A DNA stretch of 64,000 bases from Candidatus Omnitrophota bacterium (GCA_022705945.1 JAKJDL010000008.1:642-64641), one strand, 5' to 3'; shown: positions 4,276-42,300, counted from the stretch's first letter. The notes: generated by a model not told the origin, from the sequence alone. Made by a program: numbers and translations.

Positions 4276-5421
4276 CTAACGGATCCCGGGCGTTTCCGTC
4301 TTTTGAAGCAGGAATCCGAAAACATCCTCCGGGAGAAACTTTCCCTTGGCTGTGAGCCGGATCGCGTCGCCGGCGCTCTCCAAAAAACCGGTCTCAAGAA
4401 GCTCGCGGACCCGTTCCCCGATTCTGGGATAAAGAGCCGGAAAATCGGCCGGAATGACCCCGCCGCTTAGTCTGAGCCGCATCGCAAAACTTTCGGTCTC
4501 TTTTTCCTCATCGGTTAAAACGTCTTCGATATCGTTCGTCCAGTCCCCCGCCTCGCATTTCCGGAAATAATTCTTCATGTCGCGCGCAAACTGGCAGCGG
4601 ACACCATTCAGATAGGAAAAAGAGCCGGGTCCGAGACCGAGGTATTCCCCGTTACGCCAGTAGATCAGGTTGTGTTTCGACGCGAATCCCGGTTTCGCGA
4701 AATTCGAGATTTCGTAATGCTCGTATCCGGCGCTTTCCAGCAGGCTGATCGCTGTCCCATACATCGCCGCATGGACATGTTCGGCGGGAAGATCGAGCCT
4801 GTTCTGATTTTTGAGTTCCCCGAAAACCGTTTCTTCATGGACCTCGAGGTCGTAAAGCGAAACTTGAGACACCTCAAGCTCGACCGCGCGGGCGATCGAA
4901 TTCCGGAAGTCTTCGTGCGTCTGGCCCGGAATCCGCAGCATGAGATCCAGGCTGATGTTCGAGATCCCGGCGCGGCGGATCTTGTCCAGGGTGACGATCG
5001 TGTCGTGCGCGCGATGACGCCGTCCGAGCCGTTCGAGCAGGCAATCTTCAAAGGACTGCGCCCCCAGGCTGACCCGGTTCACGCCAAGCACCCGGAAAAG
5101 ATCAAGCTTCTCGTCGTCCCCGTCCCCGGGGTTCCATTCGAAGGTGATCTCGGCAACGGTGCCGATCTCAAATGCATCGCGGACTCTATTGATGAGGCGG
5201 GTGATTTCTCCGACGGTCAGAAATGACGGAGTGCCGCCGCCAAGATAGAGGGAGTCGAATGCAAGCCTGCCGTATTTTTTATGGGCATGATCAATCTCGT
5301 TGAAGAGGCATTCGAAAAAACCCTTCCGCACCTCCGGTGCCGGATCCGGAATCGAAATGAAATTGCAATAGCGGCATCGTCCGCGGCAGAACGGAATGTG
5401 GATATAAAGCCCTTTAGTCAT
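4276..5421 (-). CDS. hemW: Radical-SAM heme chaperone HemW / oxygen-independent coproporphyrinogen-III oxidase-like
   Basis: CRGRCRYCNF (CxxxCxxC radical-SAM cluster motif) near the N-terminus, HemN-like length. The likely start is MTKGLYIHIPFC at 5421 rather than the ORF-track start at 5466. Confidence 0.8.
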   Translation of the reverse strand: MTKGLYIHIPFCRGRCRYCNFISIPDPAPEVRKGFFECLFNEIDHAHKKYGRLAFDSLYLGGGTPSFLTVGEITRLINRVRDAFEIGTVAEITFEWNPGDGDDEKLDLFRVLGVNRVSLGAQSFEDCLLERLGRRHRAHDTIVTLDKIRRAGISNISLDLMLRIPGQTHEDFRNSIARAVELEVSQVSLYDLEVHEETVFGELKNQNRLDLPAEHVHAAMYGTAISLLESAGYEHYEISNFAKPGFASKHNLIYWRNGEYLGLGPGSFSYLNGVRCQFARDMKNYFRKCEAGDWTNDIEDVLTDEEKETESFAMRLRLSGGVIPADFPALYPRIGERVRELLETGFLESAGDAIRLTAKGKFLPEDVFGFLLQKTETPGIR

Positions 5422-5544
5422 GGGAAGATTATACTCCCGATGTCGGTCACAAAACCACAACGGCACAAGGCCGCAAGGGCGACGTCCGGCGGGAAATGGG
5501 CTGGTTTTTTCCGTCGGTCCCGGTAATCGGTTTCGGAACCCCTT

Positions 5545-6441
5545 CTATTTTAAGGGGAGTTTATCGAGGGCGAGAAAGATCCCTTCGAGGATTGCTTCCG
5601 GCCGCGGCGGACATCCCGGCACGTAAACGTCTACCGGCACGCAGCGGTCCACACCGCCCGTTACCGCGTAATTTTCATTAAAGATTCCGCCCCCCACGGC
5701 GCAGCTCCCGCATGCCACAACCAGCTTCGGAGAAGGTGCGGCTTCGTAAGTTTTCACAAGCGCGAGTTCCATCTGCCGCGTCACCGGACCTGTCACAAGA
5801 AGCATGTCCGCATGCCTCGGGGAAGCGACGAAGTGTACTCCGAACCGCTCCGCGTCATAGAAAGGATTGGAAAGGTTCACGGCCTCCACCTCGCATCCGT
5901 TGCAGGACCCCGCGTCAACCTCCCGGATATGAAGCGAACGCCCGAAGAGGTGCCGGATCCTATCCTTGAGTTTGCGTCCGATGTCCTCAACCGAAAGATG
6001 TCCCGCAAAATCTCCCCCGGAAAAATCCCGGTCGTTTTCCGCCGGAGTTTTTACGGGCAATGCGTCCCCGGAAATAAAGAGCTTGTCCTTCCGGCACTCC
6101 TGCAGAGGAAAAAGAAGGTCTTGCCGCAGTTCTTTTTTTGTCCGCGCCGCGAATTTGAATTTCCCGTTAAAAGAGATCGCTTGATGGGGGCAAGCCGGCC
6201 CGCAGAGCGCACAGAAGATGCAGTCGCCGTAAGAAACGCGGAAGGTTCGCCCGGTTCCGTCTTTGTCGATCATCGCGAGGGCGCTTGACGGACAGGCCGC
6301 GACACATTGCCCGCAGCCCGTGCATTTGGCCGGATCAATCACGGGTGCTCCCGAAAATCCTCCGGGTGCCTCCGCGGCTTGCGGCGCATAAGGGATCGTT
6401 ACTTTGCCTGTTTTTATATTTTTCTTAAGGATTCTGAACAT
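5545..6441 (-). CDS. Fused 2x[4Fe-4S] ferredoxin (HycF/NuoI-like) plus NuoB/hydrogenase small-subunit-like (HycG-like) protein
   Basis: N-terminal half: CTGCGQCVAACP and CIFCALCGPACP ferredoxin motifs. C-terminal half: GSCNGC...ACGSCAVGGG...VPGCPPRPEAILEG, the NuoB/HycG cluster-binding motifs. Confidence 0.75.
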   Translation of the reverse strand: MFRILKKNIKTGKVTIPYAPQAAEAPGGFSGAPVIDPAKCTGCGQCVAACPSSALAMIDKDGTGRTFRVSYGDCIFCALCGPACPHQAISFNGKFKFAARTKKELRQDLLFPLQECRKDKLFISGDALPVKTPAENDRDFSGGDFAGHLSVEDIGRKLKDRIRHLFGRSLHIREVDAGSCNGCEVEAVNLSNPFYDAERFGVHFVASPRHADMLLVTGPVTRQMELALVKTYEAAPSPKLVVACGSCAVGGGIFNENYAVTGGVDRCVPVDVYVPGCPPRPEAILEGIFLALDKLPLK

Positions 6442-6450
6442 GTTTTGTCC

Positions 6451-8028
6451 TCAACGATCATTCCCGGAATACGACAGGTTCATGCTTTTATTGATGAGCG
6501 GAAAATCCGGGATGATATTCTCGAGTACCGCGTACTCGATCAGCGGCCAGTTCGCGAAAGACGGCGACTGGACCTTCCAGCGGACGATATTTCCGTCTCT
6601 GCCCGTTTCAACCCAGTGAAAACATTCGCCGCGAGGCGATTCCGTATAGCCCAGAGCGCTCCGAAACGGCCGGAAAGGCTTCGGAGCTCCGCACAAAGGA
6701 CCCGCCGGCATTGTCTGAAGGGCGTCATGGATCAACCTGAAGGATTCACAGACTTCCCGGACTTTCACTTTCATGCGGCTTTCGACATCGCCGTCGGTAA
6801 AAACCGGCACCCTGAATAAAAGATCCTTATACGCGGCGTAGGGGTGTTCGCGCCGCATGTCCCGGTCCACGCCGGACGCTCTCGCAATCGGCCCCACCCC
6901 TCCCAGGGCCTCGACCACTTCCTTTTTGAGTGCTCCCGTAATCTCGATTCTGTCCATGAGAGAATCCATCTGCCAAAGAATCCGGATCGTTTCGTCGAAA
7001 TCTTCCTTGATCTTCCCAATCTCGCCGAGAAGCCATTCTTTTTGTTCCTCCGTGATATCGCGGCGGACGCCGCCCAAAGCGGCCACGGACCGCAAAAGCC
7101 GTGTCCCCGTCAGCCGTTCGTTCGCACGCAAAAGGGTTTCTTTCAGGCGCATGAGCTGGCTCGCGCCGAAACTGAACGCGACATCCAGAGAAATCCCCGC
7201 AATATCGCTCATGTGATTATGAATCCGTTCCATTTCAAGGAAAATAACGCGGAGAAACCGGGCCCGAGGAGGAACCTCGATCTCTCCGAGGTTTTCGAGA
7301 GCCTGCGCGCACGCGACGGCGTGGGCCAGGGAGTTGTCCCCCGAGATCCTCTCGGCAAGACAAAGAAGATGGTCCGGTTTTTTCCCTTCACCCGCTTTTT
7401 CCGTGCCTTTGTGCGTGTAAAAATGCCGGATCTCAAGCTTGAGAATGCTTTCTCCGGCGCAGGAAAACCGGAAATGTCCCGGCTCGATGATGCCGGCGTG
7501 GACCGGTCCTACGGGGATCTCGAAGATCCCTTCCCCCTCGACGCGCTCAAAAATATAATCTCCAGCGACCCTGGGGATCTTCTGACGACCGTCGAAATCC
7601 TTTCTTAACGGAAAAATCCCCGGGGGCCAATCCTCGTGAAGCACAAGCCGCCTTGGATCCGGATGGCCCGCGGCGACAAGGCCCAGCATATCCTGGACTT
7701 CCCGCTCCTGCCAGTTCGCCTGCGGCAGGAAACGGCTCAGGGACGGGAACCGGGGATCTTTTTCTTCGACCCTCGTTTGCACGATCAGGAACCGGTCCTC
7801 ATGAGCGAAGGAAAAAACATAGTAAAGACTGAAAAACCCGTTTTCTTTTCTCGTGTCGGAACCGGAAAGAAAAAGGAAGCGCATTGCGAAAGTCCCGATA
7901 AGGAACTCCGCGACCCTCACGATCGAATCTTTGGCGACAAGCACATGCCATTGCCTCGCGGATTCTTCCCAATGCTTTTGGACCACACCGCCAAACTTTT
8001 CTTTTAACATTTCCGGGACCGGCTTCAT
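6451..8028 (-). CDS. NuoC-NuoD fusion / group-4 hydrogenase large-subunit homolog (HycE-like) lacking the [NiFe]-binding cysteines
   Basis: N-terminal NuoC-like region (MKPVPEMLKEKFGG...), then a NuoD/HycE-like core (GPVHAGIIEPGHFRF...ERISGDNSLAHA...). The start ATG at 8028 overlaps the upstream stop (ATGA). The C-terminus NLSYSGNDR replaces the DPCxSCTDR nickel site. The N-terminal RxCGxC site reads FRFSCAGES. Confidence 0.8.
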   Translation of the reverse strand: MKPVPEMLKEKFGGVVQKHWEESARQWHVLVAKDSIVRVAEFLIGTFAMRFLFLSGSDTRKENGFFSLYYVFSFAHEDRFLIVQTRVEEKDPRFPSLSRFLPQANWQEREVQDMLGLVAAGHPDPRRLVLHEDWPPGIFPLRKDFDGRQKIPRVAGDYIFERVEGEGIFEIPVGPVHAGIIEPGHFRFSCAGESILKLEIRHFYTHKGTEKAGEGKKPDHLLCLAERISGDNSLAHAVACAQALENLGEIEVPPRARFLRVIFLEMERIHNHMSDIAGISLDVAFSFGASQLMRLKETLLRANERLTGTRLLRSVAALGGVRRDITEEQKEWLLGEIGKIKEDFDETIRILWQMDSLMDRIEITGALKKEVVEALGGVGPIARASGVDRDMRREHPYAAYKDLLFRVPVFTDGDVESRMKVKVREVCESFRLIHDALQTMPAGPLCGAPKPFRPFRSALGYTESPRGECFHWVETGRDGNIVRWKVQSPSFANWPLIEYAVLENIIPDFPLINKSMNLSYSGNDR

Positions 8029-9500
8029 GAGATCGGACCTCCGCCGGCCACGCGGCTTGCCTGCTGAAGCAACTGCTGGAACGGACCCGGGACATAAAAA
8101 CCGGTCACCAGGATCACGATGAGACCCGCCACCAGAACGCTGTCCATGAGGAGACTTTTTTTGAGGACGGCCGGATTTTCGGGAACACCCAGCGTCATCT
8201 GGCTCGCGTGTTTCAGGAAACCGATAAAAACAAGCGAGAGCAGGATAAGGAGCAGGGCGCACGCAACGAATTTTTTCGCCGAAAATCCGGCGGCCAGGAT
8301 AAGGAATTCACTGACAAAAATGCTGAAAGGCGGCATCCCCGCGATGGCCAGGGCCCCGAGAAAGAAGACGATACCCAGGAGCGCCCTCTTCCGGAAAACG
8401 CCCCTCACCTTTTCGATCTCCTTGGTCTGAAAAAGGTAAAGCAGGTGGCCGGAACTGAAAAAGAGCAGTGATTTTGTGAACGCGTGGTTCACGATGTGAA
8501 GGAGCGCGCCGTAAATCCCGAGCGCGCCGCCGAATCCCAATCCCACGGCCGCGAGCCCCATATGCTCGACACTCGAATACGCCAGGAGGCGTTTGTAGTC
8601 CTTCTGCTCAAGGATGAAAGGCACGGACACGGCCACCGAAAGCACTCCGAAGAAGACAAGGAGCGTGCCGGAGAACGAGGAGCCGGTGGCGGCGCTGGTC
8701 AGGATGTGGAACCTCAGGATCCCGAGGGTCGCACAGCTCAAAAGTACGCCGGAAAGGAGCGCGCTCACCGGGGCCGGCGCCTGGCTGTGCGCGTCCGGAA
8801 GCCAGGAATGGAACGGCGCGAGACCGGCCTTGGTGCCGTATCCCACGAGGATGAAAATGAAGGCAAGCCGGAGGACCCGCGGGTCCAGCTGACCGGCCCT
8901 GCTTAAAAGAAAGGTCCAATCGAGCAGCAACTCGCCTTCTCCCGCAGCGGCCTGCGCGATGGCGGAATAATAGACCAGGATGATCCCGAAAAGCGCGAGC
9001 GCGATCCCCACACTGCAAAGGATCAGATATTTCCACGCGGCTTCAATCGAGCTTCTCTTGTCATCCACGTTAACCAGGAACGCGGAAGCGAGCGTCGTTC
9101 CCTCGATCGCGATCCACATGATACCGAGGTTGTTGGAAAGAACGGTCAAAAGCATGGTGAAAAGAAAAAGGTGGAAAAAAAAGGCATACCGGCGGATCTT
9201 CGCGGGAGAAAGCACGGCGTCCTCCTTCCCGAAAATATATCCTCCCGCGTAAGCGGCCGAAAGCACGCCGACGCTCGTGATCAGCAACACAAAGACCGCG
9301 GACAAGGCATCCATCATGAGGTTCTTGCCGAACGCGAACACGCATTCCGGCCGATCGGGCGCAAACACAAAGAACCACGCCCCTACCGCGGAAAGCGCGG
9401 CGCCGGCCATGAACACAAGGCGCGTGATCCTTTTGGGACACGGAACCAGGCAGAGGAACGCAAAAACCAGCGGTGCCCAAAGCACCTTATCGATCGTCAT
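8025..9500 (-). CDS. Proton-pumping antiporter-like membrane subunit, NuoM/NuoN/HyfD-F family
   Basis: 491 aa and 13-14 predicted TM helices, with conserved antiporter-type stretches (WLPDAHSQAPAPVSALL). Part of the ATGA-coupled operon. Confidence 0.75.
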   Translation of the reverse strand: MTIDKVLWAPLVFAFLCLVPCPKRITRLVFMAGAALSAVGAWFFVFAPDRPECVFAFGKNLMMDALSAVFVLLITSVGVLSAAYAGGYIFGKEDAVLSPAKIRRYAFFFHLFLFTMLLTVLSNNLGIMWIAIEGTTLASAFLVNVDDKRSSIEAAWKYLILCSVGIALALFGIILVYYSAIAQAAAGEGELLLDWTFLLSRAGQLDPRVLRLAFIFILVGYGTKAGLAPFHSWLPDAHSQAPAPVSALLSGVLLSCATLGILRFHILTSAATGSSFSGTLLVFFGVLSVAVSVPFILEQKDYKRLLAYSSVEHMGLAAVGLGFGGALGIYGALLHIVNHAFTKSLLFFSSGHLLYLFQTKEIEKVRGVFRKRALLGIVFFLGALAIAGMPPFSIFVSEFLILAAGFSAKKFVACALLLILLSLVFIGFLKHASQMTLGVPENPAVLKKSLLMDSVLVAGLIVILVTGFYVPGPFQQLLQQASRVAGGGPIS

Positions 9501-9504
9501 CTCG

Positions 9505-10164
9505 TCATCCTTTTAAAGCGGTCATGTCATCCACGTTGATACTCTCGAAAGCGCCGCGGATCTTGAAAACAAAGATACCCATGATCAGCCCGGCGACCAG
9601 CACGTCAAAAAAGATCCCTATCTCGACCAGGAGCGGCATGCCAAAGGTCATCGTAACACCCATCAAAAAAAGACCGTTCTCGATCAGGAGCAGGCCGAGG
9701 ACTTGACTGATCGCCTTTTTTCGCGTCGTCATCATCAGCATACCGAAAAAAACGGTCGAGACCGCGAGGGGGATAAACTCGCCCAATGAGACCGGGTTCA
9801 GGATCTTGCCTTCCCTCGTCACATAGAACGAAACAAATACGAGCAGCACGGCCAGAAGGAGCGAGAACGGGATATTGATGTAGCTTTCGATCTCCTTGCG
9901 GATACCGAGCCGCAGAATGATCCGGAAAAAGACGTGCGGGATCACGATTGTTTTCAGAACAAGCGTCAGAACGGCCGAGACCATCAGGTGTTCGACGTGG
10001 TTTGTGGACGCAATCACGGCCGTAATCGCCGCGAGAAAGAACGAGTGGGTCGCATAAGCGCGTATGCACGCCCCGATCTGCGGGGACGCCAGCATCCAAA
10101 AGGAAGCGATCACGAGCATCATGCCGAGAAAATGTGTCAGTGAAACCGCGATGCTGTCGGTCAT
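9505..10164 (-). CDS. Small membrane subunit of hydrogenase-4/FHL-like complex (HyfE-like)
   Basis: 219-aa hydrophobic protein starting MTDSIAVSL. Its ATG at 10162-10164 overlaps the stop of the upstream gene. The longer ORF-track version (to 10905) is a frame artefact overlapping the neighbouring gene. Confidence 0.55.
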   Translation of the reverse strand: MTDSIAVSLTHFLGMMLVIASFWMLASPQIGACIRAYATHSFFLAAITAVIASTNHVEHLMVSAVLTLVLKTIVIPHVFFRIILRLGIRKEIESYINIPFSLLLAVLLVFVSFYVTREGKILNPVSLGEFIPLAVSTVFFGMLMMTTRKKAISQVLGLLLIENGLFLMGVTMTFGMPLLVEIGIFFDVLVAGLIMGIFVFKIRGAFESINVDDMTALKG

Positions 10165-11111
10165 AGCCCCCTCCCGATGATTAATTGCCCCAGAAGTGAA
10201 AGGATCGCCAGAACAAATGCGACGGCAAGCAGGTCCGGGGCCCTGAAAAGGCGCAATTTCGAAGAGTGGATCTCGATCCAGCCGACTACAAAGGCCAGAA
10301 TAAAAATTTTCGCGAGAAAGAAGACCAGCGAAAATCCAAGGGCCGGAAAATCCCCGGCCGCCGCAATCCCCCAGGGAAAGAAAAGATCCGCCAAAAGCGT
10401 CAGGAACACGAGCTGCTTGATCTGATGGCTCCATTCGATCAGGGCCAGGTAGCGGCCGGAATATTCGAGGATCATGGCTTCGTGAATCATGGTTAGCTCG
10501 AGGTGCGTGGCCGGATTGTCCAGGGGGATCCGTCCGCTTTCCGTAATCGTAACGATCAGGAGCGCACCGAAAGCGAGACTCGTGAAGAAAAGGACCTGCA
10601 TCGGAGGTTCGGAAGCAAAATACACAGACATGCTTTCCAGAGACAGTGTCCGGGCGCGAAAACTCAGGGCGAAAAATGCCAGCAGGAGCGCCGGTTCCGC
10701 GAGCGACGAAAGCGTCATCTCGCGGCTCGAACCCATGCCGCCGAATGTCGTTCCCGTGTCCAGAGCCGCGAGAGCCAGAAAAAACCGCCCCAGCGCCAGA
10801 AGATAAACAAAAAGGATCACATCTCCCGTAAAACCGAAGAGGGACCGCGTCCAGAGGACGGGAACCATCGATGCCGCCGCAAGAGTCGACGCGAAAAGGA
10901 CCCACGGCATCGCGTGGAAAATCCAGGATGCCGTTTCCGGGATCACCATGTCTTTGCGGAACAATTTCCAGAGGTCCGCATAGGCCTGGATGAGGCTGGG
11001 TCCCACACGGTTCTGGGAAGCCGCTTTCATTTTTTTGATGAACCAGCTCACGGCAGGCGCGAGCGCCATGAGAAAAAAGACCTGAAAAAGGGACAAAAGA
11101 ACGGCGCTCAT
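10161..11111 (-). CDS. NuoH/HycD-like membrane subunit
   Basis: 317-aa polytopic protein with a NuoH/HycD-like pattern (PLDNPATHLELTMIHEAMILEYSGRY). True start MSAVLLSLFQ at 11111 overlaps the upstream stop (ATGA). Confidence 0.7.
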   Translation of the reverse strand: MSAVLLSLFQVFFLMALAPAVSWFIKKMKAASQNRVGPSLIQAYADLWKLFRKDMVIPETASWIFHAMPWVLFASTLAAASMVPVLWTRSLFGFTGDVILFVYLLALGRFFLALAALDTGTTFGGMGSSREMTLSSLAEPALLLAFFALSFRARTLSLESMSVYFASEPPMQVLFFTSLAFGALLIVTITESGRIPLDNPATHLELTMIHEAMILEYSGRYLALIEWSHQIKQLVFLTLLADLFFPWGIAAAGDFPALGFSLVFFLAKIFILAFVVGWIEIHSSKLRLFRAPDLLAVAFVLAILSLLGQLIIGRGL

Positions 11112-13138
11112 GTCCGACCTCCGTAGAAAAGGAGAAGGAGGATCAGCGTCACGAAAATATAGCTCAGATAAAGCTGGATGTGCCCGGTCTGGATCTGTTT
11201 GGCTTTCCTGGAAAGTTCGGCGACAATGTCCGCGAGCGGCTGGTAGACCCATTCGTCGGCATGATGCGTGATTTTTGACTCAAAACGCTGGGTGGTCCGG
11301 AGCAGTTCGTGGCCTTCGTCCTCAAGCTCGACCCGGCTCGTCGGCTGATAAAGGAAAGAGAGGATCCGGCGCAAAGGTTTGGAATAACCCGTAGCCGTGT
11401 ATTGCATTCGCGGACTAAGCCGGGGCATCCCGCAGTCCCATCTCGGACCGATACGGAAAAGTTTTTTCCCGAGCAGAACCCGCAGGAGAACCATGCTGAC
11501 AACCATGAAACCCAAAAGGATCACGGCGACAAAAGCGGGGGAAAACTGGCTTGCGCCCGAGGGCGAGGTTAAAAAGAATTTCCGTACCACGGCGGCCATC
11601 GGAAGATCCGCTCCCGACAGTTCTCCGGCAATTCTGCCGAGAATCTTCACGATCCACGGTGCCGCAAGAGCCAGCCCGAAACAATTCACGGCCAGGATCC
11701 CCATGCCCGTCTTCATGGACCCGCTCACCTCGCGCGCTTCAGACGCGTGAGCGGAACGGTGCTGACCCAAAAAAGTGATCCCGAAGGCCTTCACAAAACA
11801 GGTGGCCGCGAGGGCGCCCGCGAGACCCAGAAGCGCGGCGAGGATCGGCGAAAAAGACCGTATGGTAACGTCCGCGCTTTCGGATCCCATAAGAAGCGCG
11901 ACAAAGGTCAGCCACTCGCTTACAAAACCGTTGAGCGGCGGAAGCGCGGAGATCGCTATGGCTCCGGTCAGGAAAAAAACTGCGGTCCATGGCATTTTCC
12001 GGATTAACCCCCCGAGATCTTCCATACTGCGCGTATGCACCGCGGAGAGGACGGCGCCGGAGCCGAGAAAGAGAAGGCCTTTGAAAAATGCGTGATTGAT
12101 TACGTGATAAAGCGCGGCCATCAGGGAAAATCCCGCGTAAAGAGGCTGGTGAAACGCCTTAAAAACAGCCGCCATCCCGACCCCAAGAAGGATGATCCCG
12201 ATATTTTCAATACTTGAAAAAGCGAGCAGTTTTTTCAGATCGTTTTCCATCAAGGCATACAGGATGCCGAGGAGCGTGGAAAGAACGGCCACCGCGAGGA
12301 TCGCATAGCCCCACCACACCGGCACCTCTCCCAGAAAATCAAAAAGGAATAGCAGGAGTGCGTAAACCGCGGTTTTGATCATCACACCCGACATGAGCGC
12401 CGAGATGTGACTCGGGGCCTGCGGGTGAGCCTGGGGCAGCCAGATATGGAGCGGAATCACACCGGCCTTGGTTCCGAAACCGATAAGCGCCGCGAGAAAG
12501 ATAGTGTTCCTGAGCCCCGGAGAAAGCGTCCCGGCGGCCGCCCGGAATGCTTCGAACGAGAAACTTCCGGCGTGCATGGAAAGGAGCCAGAATGCCGCGG
12601 CGATCAATGCCGTCCCGGCATGCGTCATGATGAGATACAGCATACCAGCCTTGCGGGCTTCGGGTTTTTCGTGTTCAAAGACAACAAGAAAATAGGACGC
12701 GAGCGACATCAGTTCCCAAAACATGAGGAAGTAAAAGGCGTTCCGGACGGTTACGACAAGCAGCATCGCCAGAATGAAGACGTTGTAGAAAAATCCGAGC
12801 AGCGCGATGTTCTTCCTGCCTCGGAACTCGCGGCGGGTATAACCGACGGCAAAAACAGAGGCCGCAAGCGAGATCGAGGAAATAACCAGTATGAAAAATG
12901 CGGAAAGGGGGTCGGCTGCGAATCGCAAAGGACCCACAGGGAGGCTCCCCCGCCATTCGACGGCCCAGGATGTGCCCGTCAGGAGAACGGAAAGCGAAAA
13001 AAGAACGCCCGCGGCGCTTGCAAGGACCGCAAAACCATGCGTTACGCGGTTTGCGTTCTCACCGCGCTGGTTAAAAAGAAAGCTCGCGATCCCTCCCAGA
13101 CAATGGGAAAGAACCTGTGTATAGAACAGTAATGCCAT
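11108..13138 (-). CDS. NuoL/HyfB-like antiporter membrane subunit (hydrogenase-4 component B-like)
   Basis: 676 aa, at least 14 TM helices, and an NuoL-family signature (HIWLPQAHPQAPSHISALMSG). First gene of the six-gene minus-strand module. Confidence 0.8.
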   Translation of the reverse strand: MALLFYTQVLSHCLGGIASFLFNQRGENANRVTHGFAVLASAAGVLFSLSVLLTGTSWAVEWRGSLPVGPLRFAADPLSAFFILVISSISLAASVFAVGYTRREFRGRKNIALLGFFYNVFILAMLLVVTVRNAFYFLMFWELMSLASYFLVVFEHEKPEARKAGMLYLIMTHAGTALIAAAFWLLSMHAGSFSFEAFRAAAGTLSPGLRNTIFLAALIGFGTKAGVIPLHIWLPQAHPQAPSHISALMSGVMIKTAVYALLLFLFDFLGEVPVWWGYAILAVAVLSTLLGILYALMENDLKKLLAFSSIENIGIILLGVGMAAVFKAFHQPLYAGFSLMAALYHVINHAFFKGLLFLGSGAVLSAVHTRSMEDLGGLIRKMPWTAVFFLTGAIAISALPPLNGFVSEWLTFVALLMGSESADVTIRSFSPILAALLGLAGALAATCFVKAFGITFLGQHRSAHASEAREVSGSMKTGMGILAVNCFGLALAAPWIVKILGRIAGELSGADLPMAAVVRKFFLTSPSGASQFSPAFVAVILLGFMVVSMVLLRVLLGKKLFRIGPRWDCGMPRLSPRMQYTATGYSKPLRRILSFLYQPTSRVELEDEGHELLRTTQRFESKITHHADEWVYQPLADIVAELSRKAKQIQTGHIQLYLSYIFVTLILLLLFYGGRT

Positions 13139-13333
13139 TGCTTCTCAAAACCACCTTAAGACCCTTGTCGTGATCCCTGCGGAGAACACTTGGATCTTTT
13201 GCTTTTCGCGGGTTTCCATGCGGCGAACCTTGCGGTTACACGAGGCTGAATTTTTTTATGTTTCGAAGAGCCCCCTGACAAAATTTACGGCCCGGCTTTC
13301 ATATATACAGGAAAAAAAAACGCTGTCAATGAA

Positions 13334-14551
13334 CTATTTGATCCCGAATCTCTCTCCCAAAATGCGCGAGACCAGCATGCTCGCAACGGTGTCGCCCGTG
13401 GAATTAACCATCGTGGCGGGAGGATCGATCAGCGTGCCGACCATGGAGATCAGCGGAAGCGCTTCGGCCGGAAATCCGTAGAGCGTCACGATCAGAAGCT
13501 CTCCCAGGAACCCGCCGCCCGGGATTCCGCTCATGACCATGCCGGAGAGCAGTGCGATGCCCACGGCCGTGGCATACGTCCCCCACCCGTGAAACGGTAA
13601 GCCAAAAAAAGCAAAAAGAAGCGAAATCTTCACGATCGCTCCCATACAGGTCCCGTCCATATGGATCGTGGCGCCCACCGGGATCACGATGCGGCTGACA
13701 TCCTTCGGCACACCGATCCGGTCCGCGGCTTCGAGGTTCGCGGGGACAGTGGCTACACTGCTCCCCGTCCCCCACGCGGTCAGCGCGGGAGGCATGATAT
13801 TCCCCCAGAAATCCCGGAACCCTTTTTTTCCCCCGGCTAGCCAGACGTAAAGCGATGAGCCCGCGAAAAAATAAAACAGCGCGAACGGATAATAAACCGC
13901 GATCACGCGAAAATAAGAGCCCGGAAGGTCCGGGCCGAGCGTCCCGACAAGGTGCGCGAAATAAGCCCCGAGTCCGACAGGCGCGTAGAACATGATGAGA
14001 TGGATTACTTTCATCATGACCTTGTTTCCCGCAGTCAGAAAATTCACGAATGGTTTTCCCTCTTCGCGCGCGAGCGATGCGGCAAGCCCGATCAGGATCG
14101 CAAAAACAATCAGGGCCGGCATATTCTGTCTTGAGAGCAGGTGCGCGAAATCCGGCACCGTGAATGCGCGCACGATCCGGGCCGTCGCGTTGTTCTGACG
14201 GAAATCCTCCGGAAGCTCGAAGATCGGATGCCCCAAAAGGACAGGCGGGAAAAGCTTTACTCCGAGGATCATCAGGCACGATGAGACGATCCCCGTCACG
14301 ACAAAGATCAGGATCATCCAGCCCATGATCTTTCCGAGCCGGCGGAGGTCGGACATTTCCGCGATCGCGGAGGAGATCGAAAAGAAAACAAGCGGGACCA
14401 CGGCCGTAAAGAGCAGGTTCAGGAAGACATCGCCAAGCGACTTCAGGACCGCCGATTTTTCCTTCAGCAAGATCCCGAGGCCCGCGCCGACGGCGACGGA
14501 GAAAATCAGCAGGATGGAAAAGGAGTAGTGCCTTAAAAAATGATGCTTCAC
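13334..14551 (-). CDS. Dicarboxylate/amino acid:cation symporter (DAACS; GltP/SstT/DctA family)
   Basis: 405 aa, with typical DAACS motifs and hairpin loops (e.g. AVVPLVFFSI). SstT-like length. Confidence 0.75.
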   Translation of the reverse strand: MKHHFLRHYSFSILLIFSVAVGAGLGILLKEKSAVLKSLGDVFLNLLFTAVVPLVFFSISSAIAEMSDLRRLGKIMGWMILIFVVTGIVSSCLMILGVKLFPPVLLGHPIFELPEDFRQNNATARIVRAFTVPDFAHLLSRQNMPALIVFAILIGLAASLAREEGKPFVNFLTAGNKVMMKVIHLIMFYAPVGLGAYFAHLVGTLGPDLPGSYFRVIAVYYPFALFYFFAGSSLYVWLAGGKKGFRDFWGNIMPPALTAWGTGSSVATVPANLEAADRIGVPKDVSRIVIPVGATIHMDGTCMGAIVKISLLFAFFGLPFHGWGTYATAVGIALLSGMVMSGIPGGGFLGELLIVTLYGFPAEALPLISMVGTLIDPPATMVNSTGDTVASMLVSRILGERFGIK

Positions 14552-15496: not shown

Positions 15497-18400
15497 TTAA
15501 GCGGCGGAGGAGAGAGCGGAGTAAGCGGCATGAATTTCTGTCAGATAATTGCTGAGAAGCCGGCTTGTCGTGCGGACCTTCCCGAAAACCCTCGGCCCGC
15601 CGATCCAATCACGGACGGCGAAAAGGAGCGTGACGCCTTTTTGCGAGTGTTCGCGAGGCAGATCGTCATGGATAAGGTAGGATTCCTTCAGTTTCTCCGG
15701 CGCTACGGCATCCAGCCGGGCCGCAAATTCATCCAGGGTATCGACATTTTCCCGCGCATCAAAAACACATGTTCGTCCCGGATTTTTCAGAAGAAGTTCC
15801 CACGAGGCATTCTGGCGGGCTTCAACAATGATCCGGGATCTTCCCGCCGGCCTCCCCCGCGAACGACGATTCTGCGCCGCTTCCCTGATTAAACCGTTTT
15901 GAAACTCAAGCAATTTTTCTCGCGAAGCACCCGGCACCACAATTTGAATGAAAAGATCGTGAGATACCGCCAAATCCACAGCCTGTCTCACCGCGGGATG
16001 CGAAGGATCGATCATCTCCAAAATAACCGAGAGTTTATCCCCCGCATCCCGGGCTTTCACATCCTGAAAGATTATTTCCAGACCCCGGGTTGCGGCGTCG
16101 CTCTTATTCGCTGCGGAGCCCGATCCGACAAGCAGCGCGATCATTCTTTCGCGTCCCATTTCCAGAACTCTCGAATGACGGATCACTCCCCTCGCGGCAT
16201 TAACCGCTACTTGTCTTTCTGATTCGGCAAGCTCGGCACGCATTTGCTTTTCAGAACCTGTTTCACGGGTTTCGGAACGGGCGAGCTTTCCGTTCATCTT
16301 CAGCGGATCTCCCGTAATAGTTATTGAAAAATTACTTCCGAGGGAGCCCTTATCCGTGAGAAACCCGAGCTTTTCACCCCGAAGCAAATAGTTTTCATAA
16401 AAACGATCCGAGCGCTCCCAGTAGGAGGTCCAGACCAAATCCTTCTCGCCTTTGCGATACAACAAACTTAATACCGCGTCCATCAAAAAAACGCCCTTGC
16501 CCTTATCTCCGTCTTTTTTCGAGACAATTCGTTTGAGATTATTCAAAGAAAAAACCGTTGCCGGCCTTAGATGCGCAAATCCTCTAAGGTTATTCTTTTC
16601 GCCCAGCAACAACAGGGTCGTTGAAACGCCCCCGATGGCCCTGTCCCAATCCTCCTTGTTTCCAAAGGCTTCCCTGTCTTCAAAAGCGGCTCGCTCAAGT
16701 GCCGCGATCTCACCGGCAATATCGCTTTTTGCTTCCGCGGCCAACCTTATGCGGCCGAGGTCAACAATCGTTCCGAACACCGGATCGCTCGCGATAACAG
16801 ATTCGTCAGGGATTGCTAGTTCCGAAAGAGCACCGGCGGGCGGCCGGGGCACATCGGATCCATCCTTCCGAATCTCGCTTCGTTTGGCCGGACTTTCCGG
16901 AGAGGGGGCAAAAACCCACCGGAGCAGGGTGGTATTATCCGGCGCATATTCTCCTCCGGCAAATTCAATATAATCCTGCGCTCGCGCCGATCCCGAAGCG
17001 AGGTAGCGGATCCGTTCATCTTGTATCGTTTTAAGATCGCCGACGTGATAACCATGAATGCCATCGGTCGCAACAAGTATCTCTACCGAACTTTTCGCGC
17101 CTCTCAGATCCAGACGGGTGATGAAGGGTTTCGACACCAAAACCTTTCTGAAGCTTCTGTCACCGAAGGCTCGGGTCAGAGAAAAAAAATGGCGCGTGCG
17201 AAGGTTCATTAACCGCGGGACATTCGAGCTTTTAACTATTTTAAAACCGGGAGCAGAAAGCAGCGCGGGATCATCGCCGACGGTATGCTGAGGGAAAGAC
17301 AGAAACTCACGGTTGTCTTTCAGGACATAAACGGGAGAATCTCCGACAATCATCACGAAGAGGTCCTTTTTATTGTCGGGAACAAAAACCGCTGATAGCG
17401 TCGACCCGGAATCAAACCAAACCGTCAAAAGATGAAGTGTGCGGAATGTCCCGGAGAATGCCGCCCGGATATCACCTCCGCGCAGGAGAACCATAAATCT
17501 AAAAACGGGGGCGAGCAACAACTGAAGCAGTCTTGAGACGCGGGAGCCGTTATGCCCGTCCATAACGGCCATCAACCTCCCGGACGAAAGGAATCCGGGA
17601 ACCGCAACCCGGATCTCCTGATTTATAAAACGGTCCTCCTGATATTTTTTTAATCCCCGGGTTTGGGCCGACTGTGGAACTTCCCGTAACTCGGATCGCT
17701 TTATGACGGCTCCGTCGGGGTTGACCCAAAAGGTTTTGTAAATTTCTTCGTCCAAAAAATGATTGGATTTAACCCGAATGCGGCGGGCTCCGGTCTCATT
17801 ATCGGGCTTTCCGACGCTCACCGCGATCCCGATCATGTGGTCGTGATCATTATGAATTAGCACGGGACCAGAAAAACTTTCCCGAATCGTTTTCAAAAAA
17901 CCCTCTCTCGCCGATTCTCCCGCAGCGAAAAGATGCACTGCCGCTTTTTCTGTAATTCCTTTTTCCAAAAAAATTCTTTTGATGCTGGCAAGATACTCCT
18001 GAAGTTCCGGGTTCGAAATATAATTCCTGTCGCTGTTCCATGGCGAAATGTGCGCCGCACCCACCTTCCCATTTTCAAAAGCGAGAAGGAAAACGCATTG
18101 GCCTGACTGAAGTCCTCCGGAAGCAAACGGCTCATTATCATAAACCTGCAGCATATTCTCCCTGAGATAGCCCCTGATACCCTGGGGAAAGGGTATCCCC
18201 GCGGTGATGTCGTAAACAGGGTTTTCGGGATAATCATCCGGCGGTCTTTCACCCGTGATCATCTCTGTGATCAAATGTCCGAGAACCTTTACCGAGGGAT
18301 TCGTTTGGTAGCGAATAGCGCCGCAAATTTCAAGAAACATTACGGCCGAAAAACCGGTCAGGGCGGTCCGGTAAAGAATTTTCGGCAGCCGGGAAATCCG

Positions 18401-38292: not shown

Positions 38293-39264
38293 CTAAATGA
38301 ATTTCAACTCCACTTTCCGTGGAATGATGCCGTGCCTGTGAGCTTCGTCCAGCAACCGCCGGAACCCTGCCTCGCCGTCGGCTCCGATATCGACCGTCCG
38401 CTCGTTCACATACATCCCGACGAACCGGTCGTTCAGATCCCAGGGCGTACCGCGCCCGAATTGGAGCGCGTATTTTAACGCGTCTTCGCGGTGATTCAAG
38501 GCATATTCGATGCTCTCTTTGAAAAGCGCCGAGAACTCCCGCATCGTCTGTTCTCCGAGGTCTTTGCGGATCACATCGACGCCGAGCGGGAGCGGCAGGC
38601 CCGTTTTCCCGTGCCACCACTCGCCCAGATCCAAGACCTTCCCGAGACCGTGCGCTTCGTGGGTGATCTGACCTTCGTGGATCACGAGACCATAGTCTGC
38701 TTCGCCGGATTTCACGGCATCGAAAATCTTGTCAAAAGGAACAAGCACTGTTTCAAAGTCACGCACAATGTCAGCTTCAGCGGTCGCCGCATAAAGCTGA
38801 AAAACCAGGTAGGCAGTGGTAAGCTTGCCGGGAACTGCAACTCTGGGTTTGGCCGCACGACACGGGCCGAACGCCTCATGAAGGTTTCCGCCGCGGGGCT
38901 TTGTGGCCCGGCGGCTTGCGGCAACAAGTATGGGGCCGTAATTGTCGCCCACGCTCGCGCCCGAGCGCATGACGGCATAACTTTCCGCCAGATAAGCGTA
39001 TGCGTGACAGGAAACGGCGGTTACTTCTAAGGGAACTGGCGGATTTTCAGGGACCGGCTCTCTCGCCGTCTCTTTCCGAAAATCAGCCTGCCCCTTTCCC
39101 AGCGCCCTTTGATTGAGCGACTCGATGTCCTCGATCACATGCTCGATCTTGAAACCGCGCATCGGGATTTTTTCGTGCGCGAGTGCGTAGAACATGAATG
39201 CGTCGTCCGCGTCAGGGCTGTGGCCTACTCTTATCAATCCGGGAGATGTCTTCATGGTAGGCAT
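38293..39264 (-). CDS. MqnA/MqnD-family protein (futalosine-pathway menaquinone biosynthesis, periplasmic-binding-like fold)
   Basis: IRVGHSPDADDAFMFYALA near the N-terminus and overall about 320 aa resemble the MqnA/MqnD (VitK2_biosynth) family. Called from memory without a search. Start at 39264 or 39255. Confidence 0.5.
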   Translation of the reverse strand: MPTMKTSPGLIRVGHSPDADDAFMFYALAHEKIPMRGFKIEHVIEDIESLNQRALGKGQADFRKETAREPVPENPPVPLEVTAVSCHAYAYLAESYAVMRSGASVGDNYGPILVAASRRATKPRGGNLHEAFGPCRAAKPRVAVPGKLTTAYLVFQLYAATAEADIVRDFETVLVPFDKIFDAVKSGEADYGLVIHEGQITHEAHGLGKVLDLGEWWHGKTGLPLPLGVDVIRKDLGEQTMREFSALFKESIEYALNHREDALKYALQFGRGTPWDLNDRFVGMYVNERTVDIGADGEAGFRRLLDEAHRHGIIPRKVELKFI

Positions 39265-39304
39265 TATACCCGCAAATCCGGGATTCGTCCCCCGGGGCCT
39301 AATA

Positions 39305-42300
39305 TTATGCCGATCGCGCCGTCGCGAGATACCCGGCCTGCATCCGCTCAACGAGCTGGCTCACGCCGGCCACGCGTAGAAAGCTCGCGAACTTTTGAGG
39401 CGTCATGACCGAAATGTCGGAAAGCCGTTTCACCAGTTCTTCGGGAAGCGTTTCGGCACCCCACACCATCGCCCTGAGATTCAATTCGCGGCCGCGGGCT
39501 TCCCTGCCCAGGAGTTTTCTCGCATCATCCAAGTGATCGGCCTGAAGAAGGAGGGGCCGGTTGGCTGGGGAGAGCTGGGCAAGAAAGCCGCGATCCGCTG
39601 AGCTGAGTTCGCTCTCGCTCGCGAGCACAATGATCCGCGTGCCGCTGAAGACTTTCTGGACCGCCAGAAGCGCCTTCTGATCGAACGCGAAAGATTTTGT
39701 AAGAATGAGGGCATCCATCCCTTCGACCGTCCTGAAAGCTATTTTGCGGGCATCGGCATAACGTTTTTCTTCCGGTTCCGTCACGGGAGCCGCAAGCACG
39801 TCATCCGGTGTCTCCGCGGCCTGCGCGACAGGAACCACCGCATTCACGATGAGCTTGACAGCGTTCGCGCCAAACGCATAAGGCACGAGCGACACGATGC
39901 CATCCGTAAGTTTTTCCGTGACGCCGAGGAAACCCCGCAGAGTTCCGCCGCCGAGACGGATATTCTCCGGAATGAACGTCTCCGGATCCGCAAAAACCAG
40001 CCGTGTCTGACCCGGCTCTGCCTGCGAGCGCGTCTCGGACCGGACAGGAACTGCGGATTTCTGCCGATACCGTGTTGGTTTGCCGGAAACCGGAACCGGG
40101 CGGTCAAAAGTCGCACTGTCGCCAAGGGCCATCTGAAAGTCTTTTTGAAATTTGTTCAAAGCTTTTTTCAGGCTCCCCCATGTGACCGGGTCTTTGGGAA
40201 GATTCTCCGGAATCCGGACTATCTCCTTGTAAAACCCGCGGAGGACTTTCACGGCGTCGGATTCGCGGCCATAGTTCAGAGAAGCCGACGTTACCATCGG
40301 AACAAAAACATCCCCGCACAACATGAAAAGATCTCGAAGCATGTTCGGGTCAAGCTTCCCAAACTCCTTCCATCCCGATTCCTCCATCTCAAGCAATTCA
40401 CGGTAGTCCGCACCGGCCAGCGCGCGCGGATAATCGCGCGGCAGTCGCGGATAATCCCTCGATGCTTCCTGATTCAGATAATAAAGTTTCCCGAAAAAGC
40501 CCCGGATCAGCCGACGGGACGGGTCATTCATCCCGGGATACCGGCTTTCCATTGTGTCGGTGAGAAGCCGGACAATAAAATGCACCCCCGGTGCGAGATT
40601 TTCCTCCGGCACCGGCTGGGAATAGAAGGAGCGGCCCCAAAAACCCTTTTCCGCAAGCGCTTTAAGATTCGCCTGGGAAATGTTGCCTTTGTTCTTCGCG
40701 TTTCTAGAGCCCCGTAAAACAAACGGCGCGGTTCGCCCCGGCAAGGCCTCGGAAATACTCTCTTCCAATCGGCCCCGCAAAGTTTCATCGACCGGGAGCG
40801 TCTCACCGGAAACAGTCGCGGAGGCGGAAACCTCTGCCGTTGCGGACGCTTCTTCCGGAACGATAGGGGCAGAAAGACCGACCGCCCCGCGATCAAGGAT
40901 CCTCAAAACAGAGCCCTCGAAATCCCAGAAACCGAGCGTCTTGCCCCAGGCAAGAAGGTGGACGGCCATGTCCTTCGGAATCCCGTAACGGGACGCATTC
41001 AGACGAAGGTCTTCCGCTATATCGGGAGGAACTTCTCCCTCCCAGGAGGAGACCCAACTCCGAACCGCTTTCGTGATGAACGGCTGTTGTTCCCGAATAT
41101 AATCCGCCCTGAAACTAACCGTGAGCAATGCGTTCCGGAACGGCACCCGGATTTGCGTATGCTCAAACCGGACACCGTTCTTCATTGTCAGAATAGACTG
41201 GGCATAAATCTGATTGAACATTTTCCTTGTTTGTTCGACAGATAGCTGTTCCCGGCCCGATCGCGCTTCCGCGCGTAGTGGGACAGCCGCAACGTTTGGC
41301 ACAACAATCGGCGTTTCGGCCACATCTGCTGCCGACGCGATAGCCGCATCCGATATCTCAACAGCCCCCGCACGAAGCTCCGAACGGTTCACTCCCACCG
41401 GCACCATCTGAAGGACCTGAAACCGCCATCCCGGCTGCCGGATCCCCGCCGGATCCTTACGTCTGACCACGGGTATCCCCGTTCTCCAGCCTTCTTTGAG
41501 AAGCGCGGAAAGCGTATGTTTCTTTTCGTAGACTTGCCCCAGAATAAGATCGCGAGCCTGATAGATCATCTCCGGCAAGAGACCCAGCGTTGAGATACTG
41601 CCGATCCCGAACCAAACCTTCCCCTCATCCTTATTGTAAGGAGTTTTCGCAAAATGGATCGGGATTACGACATGACGTTTTTGTTCGAGTCCGCCGGTTT
41701 CTTCTTTAAGCGTCCTGGAGATCACAATGGCCGTACCACGGCTGGCATCGTTGAAAAAAACCTCTCCTCTTTCAAAAAGATCTTTCACTGCCGGATCCCG
41801 CATGACGCTCTTGAGGGCCCGGTAAACCTCCCGGGATTCTTCCTCCGGCCCTTCCCAGTCTTTCATGTCTTCGAGAAGTTCCGGTACAAGCGCCGAGATA
41901 AAGGCCATCACGGGACGAACACCTTCCGCGCCGAAAAGCTCTATCGCCGTATCCCGTCCGATCCCGGAAACAGCCTGGAGATGCGTTTTGAGCTCTTCCG
42001 GTCCCCGGTGCTGGTAATAGGTCACCATTTTCTTCAGCCAATAGACCCTCGGCTTTTGCTGGCGCAATTGCTCTCCCGGTTCGCCGGAAACAAGCGCGCG
42101 AAGATCGTCCAGGATGAGAGATGCCAACTGCTTCCTTTTTTCTTCCGGTTTCATCTCGCCCGCGGCCCGGAGTTTCAGGATCTGAATATCGGGAGACGGC
42201 ACCCCGACCGGCAGAGTTCCCTGCGCGAGCATCCAGAAGGGATAAGGCTTCCGGTCCTCGCCCATCCCGTAGACCTCTCCCGTGATCGCATTGAGGACCT

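Follow-up and report, generated by a model that had tools for sequence, protein, structure and literature searches.

Between positions 5545 and 13138 of a stretch of 64,000 nucleotides from an uncultured Candidatus Omnitrophota bacterium (GCA_022705945.1, JAKJDL010000008.1:642-64641; the whole 64-kb stretch is called the window below) lie six intact, co-directional open reading frames (ORFs) on the minus strand, which make up one translationally coupled operon for a membrane complex of the energy-converting-hydrogenase-related (Ehr) type. Read in the coding direction, they encode an ehrA-like, antiporter-like membrane subunit of the HyfB/NuoL type (gene A, 13138..11108, 676 amino acids, aa), an ehrB-like membrane subunit of the HycD/HyfC/NuoH type (gene B, 11111..10161, 316 aa), an ehrC-like small membrane subunit resembling HyfE (gene C, 10164..9505, 219 aa), an ehrD-like, antiporter-like membrane subunit of the HyfF/NuoM type (gene D, 9500..8025, 491 aa), an ehrL-like large subunit that joins a NuoC-like to a NuoD/HycE-like part (gene E, 8028..6451, 525 aa) and an ehrS-like iron-sulfur subunit in which HycF-like and HycG-like domains are fused (gene F, 6441..5545, 298 aa).

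The original prediction for this locus, made from the sequence alone, had described the same six minus-strand genes over the same interval, and its reading of the junctions stands in part. ATGA overlaps of 4 nucleotides (nt) link A to B (11111-11108), B to C (10164-10161) and D to E (8028-8025), as it had reported, but its total of four such junctions out of five falls to three, with a 4-nt gap between C and D and a 9-nt gap between E and F. The surplus junction probably arose from an ATGA string on the stop of gene C (9508-9505), whose ATG is out of frame with the start of gene D at 9500. Shine-Dalgarno-like sequences (GGAGG, GAGGA or AAGGA) lie a few bases 5' of each start, gene A having a GGTGG-like stretch. 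Omnitrophota relatives at 74-80% protein identity keep the six-gene set and the three overlaps with equal or nearly equal gene lengths (A 676-704 aa, B 316 aa, D 490-519 aa, F 299-302 aa), which supports the choice of start codons. A scan of positions 5200-13500 for promoters and terminators returned counts near the shuffled expectation and no convincing signals of operon boundaries.

Subunits were assigned from Pfam, NCBIfam and PDB matches together with direct BLAST comparison to the E. coli hyf, hyc and nuo loci, and all of these sources agree. Gene A matches Pfam Proton_antipo_M (6.9e-55) and the NCBIfam model 'hydrogenase 4 subunit B' (NF005086, 738 bits against a cut-off of 667), is 41% identical to E. 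coli HyfB and has HycC as its best PDB match (5e-70). The Glu of transmembrane helix 5 (TM5; FWELMS), the Lys of TM7 (GTKAG) and the Lys of HAFFK are all there, the TM7 Lys being kept at a position where HycC has Leu. Gene B matches Pfam NADHdh (1.5e-41) and, in the PDB, HycD (2.6e-39, the best) followed by Mbh subunit M (1.4e-30); it is 38% identical to E. coli HyfC, and the carboxylates that it has in common with HycD are conserved in SSRE, AEP, ITESGRIPLD and LEYSG. Gene C matches the NCBIfam 'hydrogenase 4 membrane subunit' (HyfE) model over its full length (9.6e-27, below the cut-off), with a weak match to Pfam Oxidored_q2 (NuoK-like) and 26% identity to E. coli HyfE. Gene D, with a Proton_antipo_M match of 2.7e-53, NCBIfam HyfF matches of up to 493 bits and 48% identity to E. 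coli HyfF, likewise carries a TM5 Glu (IAIEGT), a TM7 Lys (GTKAG) and the Lys of HAFTK, as read from its sequence. Taken together, the operon follows the gene order of hyf and comprises its core, from which HyfA, HyfD and HyfJ are missing and in which HyfH and HyfI form one fused protein. The canonical charged positions are intact in the three membrane subunits checked (A, B and D), and nothing in the sequence hints at a loss of electron-transfer or ion-translocation capacity.

The iron-sulfur subunit is equally well furnished. Gene F matches Pfam Fer4 families and Oxidored_q6 (7.7e-33), and in the PDB MbhJ (2.1e-46) and HycG (2.2e-42). Its first domain (aa 1-117, 6441..6091, minus strand) is a HycF/NuoI-like 2x[4Fe-4S] domain (37% identity to HycF; PDB match to HycF 8.5e-19) with two CxxCxxCxxxCP motifs, C40/43/46/50 and C74/77/80/84. 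A linker joins it to a HycG/NuoB-like domain for the proximal [4Fe-4S] cluster (aa ~150-298, 5994..5548, minus strand; 46% identity to HyfI/HycG over residues 149-298); C180, C183, C247 and C277 of this domain are matched in the alignment by cluster ligands of MbhJ and HycG. The prediction had read the small-subunit cysteines (CNGC...CGSC...GCPP) as intact, and so they prove, with all eight plus four Fe-S cysteines kept. The peripheral arm thereby retains its whole wire of three clusters, of which the HycF-like domain carries two [4Fe-4S] and the HycG/NuoB-like domain the proximal [4Fe-4S]. Both fusions that had been described, HycF-HycG and NuoC-NuoD, are present, but the novelty implied for them is not, the NuoC-NuoD fusion being normal in HycE, HyfG, HyqG and E. 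coli NuoCD. Fusion of HycF to HycG was likewise rejected as a new feature: many related loci are fused, including [NiFe]-retaining ones and those of the Omnitrophota relatives. At two loci of the archaeal sister clade, the HycF-like and HycG-like genes are separate (112 and 160 aa) and overlap by 4 nt.

It is in the large subunit that the complex parts company with hydrogenases. Gene E matches Pfam Complex1_30kDa, Complex1_49kDa and NiFeSe_Hases, with a NuoC-like part at about aa 1-160 and a NuoD/HycE-like part at about aa 165-525; it is 35% identical to E. coli HycE, which is also its best PDB match (7Z0S chain E, 9e-96, aa 8-525), and MbhL follows at 5.6e-47. An AlphaFold2 model built from a 13-sequence alignment has a predicted local distance difference test (pLDDT) score of 70 and 7z0s_E as its top Foldseek match (TM-score 0.79), so that the predicted structure bears out a HycE fold. 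Where 7z0s_E has its first (L1) [NiFe] motif, RVCGICGFAH, phmmer aligns ERISGDNSLAH (aa 226-236, 7353..7321, minus strand); where HycE has its second (L2), DPCYSCTDR, the protein ends in NLSYSGNDR (aa 517-525, 6480..6454, minus strand). The four nickel-binding cysteines of E. coli HycE are thus replaced by Ser229, Asn232, Ser519 and Gly522. The prediction had been right about the C-terminal motif and about the loss of nickel ligands, which it put at three or more of four; the HycE alignment raises the count to four of four and moves the N-terminal site. The segment it had taken for the RxCGxC site, FRFSCAGES (aa 186-194, 7447..7473, minus strand), aligns instead to HycE FRLFVDGEN in the beta1-beta2 hairpin (GPVHAGIIEPGHFRF...), a feature common to true group 4 hydrogenases: GPVHAG.IEPGHFRF is conserved in cysteine-free and cysteine-containing relatives alike, and the large subunit of the window still has Glu182 and His185 in its beta1-beta2 loop. 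Offset or frameshifted ligands had been raised as a possible undoing of the claim, as had a true C-terminus elsewhere. All six frames of the window are free of [DE][PL]CxxC and RxC[GS]xC, which removes the frameshift alternative, and homologues of 525 aa stop at the same residue.

In the 120 best database homologues, which by their source names come from Candidatus Omnitrophota and then from Methanoperedens and other anaerobic methanotrophic (ANME-2) archaea, ER[IV]SGD[NH]S..[HN] is found in every one (at 50-80% identity) and [NSG]LSY[SA]G[NS]D[RMIL] in 119, that is, in all that have this end. Such near-invariance, here and in about 69 of 80 further loci described below, points to purifying selection on a new site and indicates that the site is not in decay. 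Comparison of cysteine-free with cysteine-containing sets singles out Ser229, Asp231, Ser519, Gly522, Lys207 and Asp282 as the positions that tell Ehr from [NiFe] proteins. Asp231 is new and occurs in 94% of 79 cysteine-free sequences; Lys207 is Arg in hydrogenases and NuoCD; Asp282, which is Gly in most hydrogenases, or Phe, is Asp in E. coli NuoCD and aligns with Asp139 of T. thermophilus Nqo4, a key coupling residue at the quinone site of complex I. Together with Asn232, these residues turn the former [NiFe] pocket into a conserved polar site. No large-subunit cysteine is invariant in the 13-sequence alignment of the window's own clade, and the residue after Gly522 is Asn. The large subunit ends at ...SGNDR, and HycE and HyfG run on for 32 residues more; the missing extension was rejected as a mark of Ehr, since the [NiFe]-retaining sister clade is also without it.

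A pattern-seeded scan of GTDB representative genomes returned at least 598 relatives, and 80 loci among the matches listed, none of them from an Omnitrophota genome or from Geobacter, were examined. From Archaea to many bacterial phyla, the six genes keep the order A-B-C-D-E-F. A cysteine-free SG[DTV]x / SY[SAT]Gx[D] pocket is present in 69 of these 80 loci among the matches listed (L2 being unresolved in two), and the other 11 keep CG[AV]C / ELCY[AS]CxDR; the latter belong to Thermincola, Ectobacillus, Peptococcaceae, Desulfotomaculum, some Chloroflexota, a Negativicutes, a Gemmatimonadales and a Myxococcales metagenome-assembled genome. In a rough neighbour-joining tree of large subunits, rooted on E. 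coli NuoCD and drawn without bootstrap and without Geobacter EhrL, Ech, Mbh or Mbx, the window and its Omnitrophota relatives fall inside the cysteine-free radiation, and HycE/HyfG and NuoCD fall outside it. The sister of the Omnitrophota clade is a Methanoperedens/ANME-2d/Methanomassiliicoccales clade, and the same radiation holds ammonia-oxidising archaea, Nitrospira, Acidobacteria, Rokubacteria, the Candidate Phyla Radiation (CPR), Firmicutes and a [NiFe]-retaining clade that includes Desulfotomaculum (locus L015). This arrangement agrees with published ones (PMC3569383, PMC10284858), and the complexes of ammonia-oxidising archaea, Nitrospira and CPR are those called Ehr in the literature (PMC10432482, PMC10284858, PMC7304191). 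In all, Ehr loci were seen in Omnitrophota, ANME-2d/Methanoperedens, Methanomassiliicoccales, ammonia-oxidising archaea, Nitrospira, Acidobacteria, Rokubacteria, Chloroflexi, CPR and Firmicutes.

As the Ehr family is described in papers that cite the defining study, its members combine a large subunit homologous to that of group 4 [NiFe] hydrogenases, loss of the L1 and L2 CxxC motifs, and NuoB/HycG-like, NuoH-like and antiporter-like genes side by side. The window has the first by its HycE (9e-96), MbhL (5.6e-47) and Foldseek matches, the second by the HycE alignment, the 120 homologues and the six-frame search, and the third in a single operon with 4-nt overlaps or gaps of at most 9 nt. The complex is very probably of the Ehr type and not a hydrogenase, as the original prediction had proposed, and loss of all four ligands, intact Fe-S ligands and the published six-gene Ehr/Hyq layout support that assignment. 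Production or splitting of H2 by [NiFe] chemistry would, we infer, be impossible for it.

Set beside the window by description, the Geobacter sulfurreducens genes EhrA-1/EhrC/EhrL/EhrS (GSU0739-45; EhrABCDLS) have a like layout (PMC7894505), as do the six-gene Ehr locus Desru_3260-3265 of Desulfotomaculum ruminis (PMC3569383) and the Ehr of ammonia-oxidising archaea, comammox Nitrospira and CPR (PMC10432482, PMC10284858, PMC7304191); the module in common joins a large and a small subunit to four membrane subunits, which are NuoL-like, NuoH-like, HyfE-like and NuoM/N-like. The window's closest relatives outside its phylum are those of Methanoperedens/ANME-2d and Methanomassiliicoccales archaea, at 50-55% identity. 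Unlike many Ehr clades (Nitrospira, Rokubacteria, ammonia-oxidising archaea), which are without a HycF-type 2x[4Fe-4S] domain, the window keeps this domain in full, fused to its small subunit. The [NiFe]-retaining sister clade (Thermincola, Desulfotomaculum, Peptococcaceae, Ectobacillus) has the same A-F order, a large subunit 43-46% identical to the window's and, in several members, a fused HycF-HycG. Having kept CG[AV]C and ELCY[AS]CxDR, its members are probably true hydrogenases, as has been stated for D. ruminis (PMC3569383), and they probably correspond to the 'group 4f'-like enzymes that the literature puts beside Ehr. In that literature Ehr is placed near group 4f hydrogenases, and the D. 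ruminis EhrL still has four cysteines (PMC10432482, PMC10284858, PMC7304191, PMC7894505, PMC3569383, PMC6349859).

Among solved or annotated systems, E. coli hydrogenase-4 and hydrogenase-3 (the HyfBCEFGHI core; HycCDEFG, PDB 7Z0S) provide the best homologue of every subunit, HycC, HycD, HycE, HycF and HycG being top or near-top PDB matches, and neither phmmer against the PDB nor Foldseek returned a solved structure nearer to the large subunit than HycE. Compared with Hyc and Hyf, however, the operon is without the [NiFe] cysteines, HyfA/HycB, HyfD, HyfJ/HycH, HycI and an FdhF partner, and Asp231, Asp282 and Lys207 are new. Nor does it resemble a group 4a hydrogenase in the features that mark one, having neither the four [NiFe] cysteines nor the C-terminal extension, with no HycB/HyfA, HycI or Hyp genes in the window. 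With complex I it has ancestry and L-shaped design in common, as well as a large subunit without a NiFe site and an Asp282 equivalent to Nqo4 Asp139, but it differs in having neither the NuoEFG input module nor the NuoA/J/K/N set (no Pfam or NCBIfam matches to NuoE, F, G or A) and in a small subunit with a hydrogenase-type CxxC where complex I has a tandem CC. Its sequences are much nearer to Hyc/Hyf than to Nuo (for gene E, 330 bits with HycE against 146 with NuoCD).

What feeds electrons into such a machine was sought in its surroundings. The 64-kb window was found to contain none of the genes for formate dehydrogenase, NuoEFG, FpoF, Hdr, HycB/HyfA and Hyp/HycI, nor is there an input-module gene next to the operon in five relatives, three from Omnitrophota and two archaeal. 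Clustering of flanking ORFs over the 80 loci recovered no NuoEFG, FdhA, FpoF or Hdr family recurring in at least three; the families present in at least four were an ArsR-type regulator in 13 loci, a further antiporter-like subunit in 8, and generic genes. With no input-module gene adjacent or recurrent, a soluble donor such as ferredoxin acting on the HycF-like domain is the simplest supposition. As a side observation, the 13 loci that have the regulator, an ArsR/HTH_5-family protein of about 360 aa, together with an Ehr operon belong to Acidobacteria, Rokubacteria and Chloroflexi (L010, L014, L018, L027, L031, L039, L049, L050, L054, L058, L061, L069 and L079). The regulator gene lies upstream of gene A (the position was checked in the representative L054), it has no counterpart in the window, and its product may be a dedicated Ehr regulator.

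We favour, with moderate confidence, a ferredoxin-linked, redox-driven translocation of ions. Ferredoxin docking on a domain of the HycF-like kind is established for Ech and Mbh. Low-potential ferredoxin would exchange electrons at this domain, whence they would pass from the two [4Fe-4S] clusters to the proximal [4Fe-4S] cluster and on to an acceptor at the interface of EhrL, EhrS and EhrB; this step would be coupled to translocation of H+ or Na+ through EhrB, EhrC and the two antiporter-like subunits. Alternatively, the complex might run in reverse, with the membrane potential driving reduction of ferredoxin. For the acceptor, menaquinone is a tentative best guess rather than a finding, prompted by an MqnA/MqnD-family gene of the futalosine pathway in the window, by the menaquinone pathways reported for some Velamenicoccia in a survey of Omnitrophota (PMC10066038) and by the complex I-like Asp282. 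The gene (38293..39351, minus strand; PF02621, 1.2e-64) suggests that the organism makes menaquinone; it matched no NCBIfam equivalog, and no other genes of the pathway were found in the window.

Several observations weigh against ferredoxin-to-quinone coupling, in whole or in part. A single Mqn-family gene is not a complete menaquinone pathway. By alignment, the Nqo4 quinone ligand Tyr87 appears to correspond to Gly230, and His38 has no clear equivalent, falling opposite Ile181 with His185 in the same loop. Ehr complexes are also known from CPR (PMC7304191) and from Riflemargulisbacteria, in which no quinone biosynthesis was found (PMC6349859), so that quinone cannot be the partner of every Ehr complex. 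Furthermore, 12 of the 80 loci among the matches listed are without the small-subunit cluster cysteines and yet keep the SGD/SY[SA]G pocket. Such variants, with no Fe-S cluster predicted in the small subunit, imply a non-redox role, and since they keep the pocket, it may serve proton or ion coupling rather than electron acceptance. In the AlphaFold2 model, pLDDT falls below 50 at the pocket loops (aa 124-205 and 492-525), and the geometry of the pocket is not assessable. Lastly, reviews up to 2023 call the function of Ehr unknown (PMC10432482, PMC10284858), with no biochemistry for any Ehr substrate; the original prediction had called the substrate unknown, and in the literature searched it is so still. 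The cluster-less variants are L068, L076 (Methanosarcina), L078 (Dehalogenimonas), L036/L045/L065 (CPR), L032, L056, L060, L062, L066 and L077; in one example the small subunit reads GSDNSTE...GDDAC...PGNPP, and throughout the group no HycF-like domain is detected and the membrane genes are intact.

A bolder reading, which we think unlikely, makes of the pocket itself (Ser229, Gly230, Asp231 and Asn232; Ser519, Tyr520, Ser521, Gly522 and Asn523; plus Lys207 and Asp282) a new catalytic or coupling site. The pocket varies hardly at all between Omnitrophota and Methanoperedens, and an intact wire of three clusters adjoins it. It could bind a substrate or cofactor new to complex I-type machines, or it could be a redox-gated proton-loading site that powers pumping while the electrons leave elsewhere. 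Were this true, the Fe-S-complete subfamily, which has all cofactors but NiFe, would be the best entry to Ehr function.

Three further explanations are improbable. The complex might be a non-redox ion transporter or antiporter with a leftover hydrogenase-like cap, as is likely for the Fe-S-less Ehr clades, whose 12 loci keep pocket and membrane genes without small-subunit cluster cysteines, so that the scaffold can persist without electron transfer. All 12 Fe-S cysteines, however, are kept in the window and throughout its clade, which is hard to explain without electron transfer, and the Omnitrophota relatives and the archaeal sister clade keep Fer4 and NuoB-type genes; for the window we therefore hold it to be improbable. 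It might, secondly, be the membrane module of a larger enzyme whose input unit is encoded elsewhere, for instance a formate dehydrogenase-Ehr complex. A complex of this kind has been put forward as a hypothesis for Margulisbacteria and Saganbacteria (PMC6349859), the Ehr subunits of Geobacter reach higher abundance on formate (PMC7894505), and FdhF is the working partner of the ancestor-like complexes Hyc and Hyf. Synteny gives the idea no backing: HycB/HyfA, the bridge to FdhF, is missing, neither FdhA, NuoE/F, that connector nor another oxidoreductase lies beside the operon in the window, the three Omnitrophota or the two archaeal relatives, and the flanks of the 80 loci offer, in at least four loci, none but the regulator, the extra antiporter-like subunit and generic genes. 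We give it correspondingly little credence.

The third would have a soluble or sulfur-type acceptor reduced at the proximal cluster, as proposed for the Thermococcales complexes Mbs and Mbx. These are group 4-derived ion pumps without hydrogenase chemistry, and they set a precedent for losing that chemistry while keeping ion pumping. Homology to chains of 6u8y, which we take for the Mbs complex of Thermococcales, can be detected (6u8y_L 1.8e-25, 6u8y_J 9.3e-27). The similarity is far weaker than that to HycE, HycG and MbhJ (6u8y_L at 1.8e-25 against HycE at 9e-96; 6u8y_M at 2.9e-07 against HycD at 2.6e-39), the membrane arm is Hyf-like and not Mrp/Mbx-like, and nothing in the window points to sulfur metabolism, all of which makes this acceptor as improbable here as the two proposals before it. 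Mbx is also mentioned in the work on Margulisbacteria (PMC6349859).

Very unlikely, too, in our estimation is a working H2-metabolising enzyme with a non-canonical site, as claimed for the Hyq 'endo-hydrogenase' of Azorhizobium caulinodans, a proposed H2:quinone oxidoreductase. Its hyqRBCEFGI locus has, by description, a like B-C-E-F-G-I set of six subunits, with a fused NuoC::NuoD protein, HyqG, from which both CxxC motifs are missing, and with the four N2-type cluster cysteines kept in HyqI; deletion of hyq impaired diazotrophic growth, which its authors read as lost H2 recycling (PMC2650096, PMC3357923). The window, for its part, keeps Glu182 and His185 of the hydrogenase beta1-beta2 loop. 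The evidence for Hyq is nonetheless genetic and physiological, its H2:quinone activity being claimed but not from a purified enzyme, and a Ni,Fe site is, in the words of its own authors, 'uncertain, if not unlikely'. Hyq differs, too, in having no HycF-like ferredoxin subunit listed and in belonging to the nif regulon, with NifA-dependent expression. Conservation of Cys258, Cys491 and Cys497 is reported for HyqG, whereas the window's clade has no invariant large-subunit cysteine (13 sequences, with no HyqG among those aligned) and has Asn after Gly522, and hyp and hycI maturation genes are missing from the 64-kb window. We know of no H2-activating chemistry with a Ser/Asp/Asn pocket. As for a decaying hydrogenase-4 operon, or cysteines lost to a frameshift or mis-called ORF, the missing cysteines are all that speak for it, and the conservation data refute it: six intact ORFs with Shine-Dalgarno-like sequences and three ATGA couplings, lengths kept in relatives, replacement residues near-invariant in 120 homologues and no NiFe motif in any frame.

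Around the operon lies a varied neighbourhood. Upstream is a gene for a Na+:dicarboxylate-type symporter (13334..14551), and beyond it and two short ORFs, about 2.4 kb upstream of the Ehr operon and on the same strand, stands an ORF of 2359 aa (15497-22576, minus strand) that is mostly unannotated, with a PP2C phosphatase domain and a weak methyltransferase match. Downstream, 79 nt from the operon, lies a gene for a HemW-type radical-SAM heme chaperone (4276..5466, minus strand; TIGR00539, 273 bits), followed by genes for a phosphoglycerate mutase, a DEAD-box helicase and a CitMHS transporter. The HemW-type gene recurs 1.7-4 kb downstream in the Omnitrophota contigs L081 (13212-14354) and L083 (15494-16630), accompanied there by genes for PNPOx, rubrerythrin and phosphoglycerate mutase, and its recurrence is probably plain conserved synteny. 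Omnitrophota are usually described as anaerobic; a gene for an Fe/Mn superoxide dismutase in the window (22986-23654, plus strand) and rubrerythrin near the Ehr operons of relatives are signs of exposure to oxygen or tolerance of it. Giant genes are known in Omnitrophota, and the window holds an unusual multi-enzyme giant in a single ORF of 7155 aa (39305-60772, minus strand), with a full-length phosphoglucose isomerase (PF00342, 740 bits) as well as subtilase, PPDK-like and PEP-utilising domains and glycosyltransferase domains of the starch-synthase-type GT5 and GT1 families.

The consequences for annotation reach beyond one contig. Pipelines label the homologues of the large subunit 'NADH-quinone oxidoreductase subunit C' or 'Ni,Fe-hydrogenase III large subunit', and reconstructions that give these loci H2 production or NADH oxidation are probably wrong. 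A survey of Omnitrophota scored 'respiratory complex I' by PF00346 (PMC10066038); since the EhrL of the window matches that model at 149 bits, with a cut-off of 24, operons like it would be counted as complex I under that criterion. The nearest homologues outside Omnitrophota, by source name from Methanoperedens, ANME-2 or an 'uncultured archaeon' (P0062, P0064, P0065, P0116 and P0118; loci L088, L089 and L001), go by the labels 'Membrane-bound hydrogenase subunit alpha' and 'NADH-quinone oxidoreductase subunit C' and are nonetheless without the four [NiFe] cysteines. Metabolic models of Methanoperedens discuss an 'Ech hydrogenase' as a ferredoxin sink (PMC4683180), and if this is the same locus as that of these homologues, the 'Ech' is an Ehr complex and not a hydrogenase.

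The locus is a further example of a known and functionally unsolved family and is not itself a new system. Ehr complexes are widespread and often regarded as joining membrane hydrogenases to complex I in evolution, and this one leaves the question of their substrate unsolved. The comparative data do, however, yield residues that can be tested, Asp231, Asp282 and Lys207, and a gradient of cofactor loss across the family for which any functional hypothesis must account. The value of the locus lies in the warning that it gives against the labels 'complex I' and 'hydrogenase', and in the residues and subfamilies that it offers as suited to experiments.

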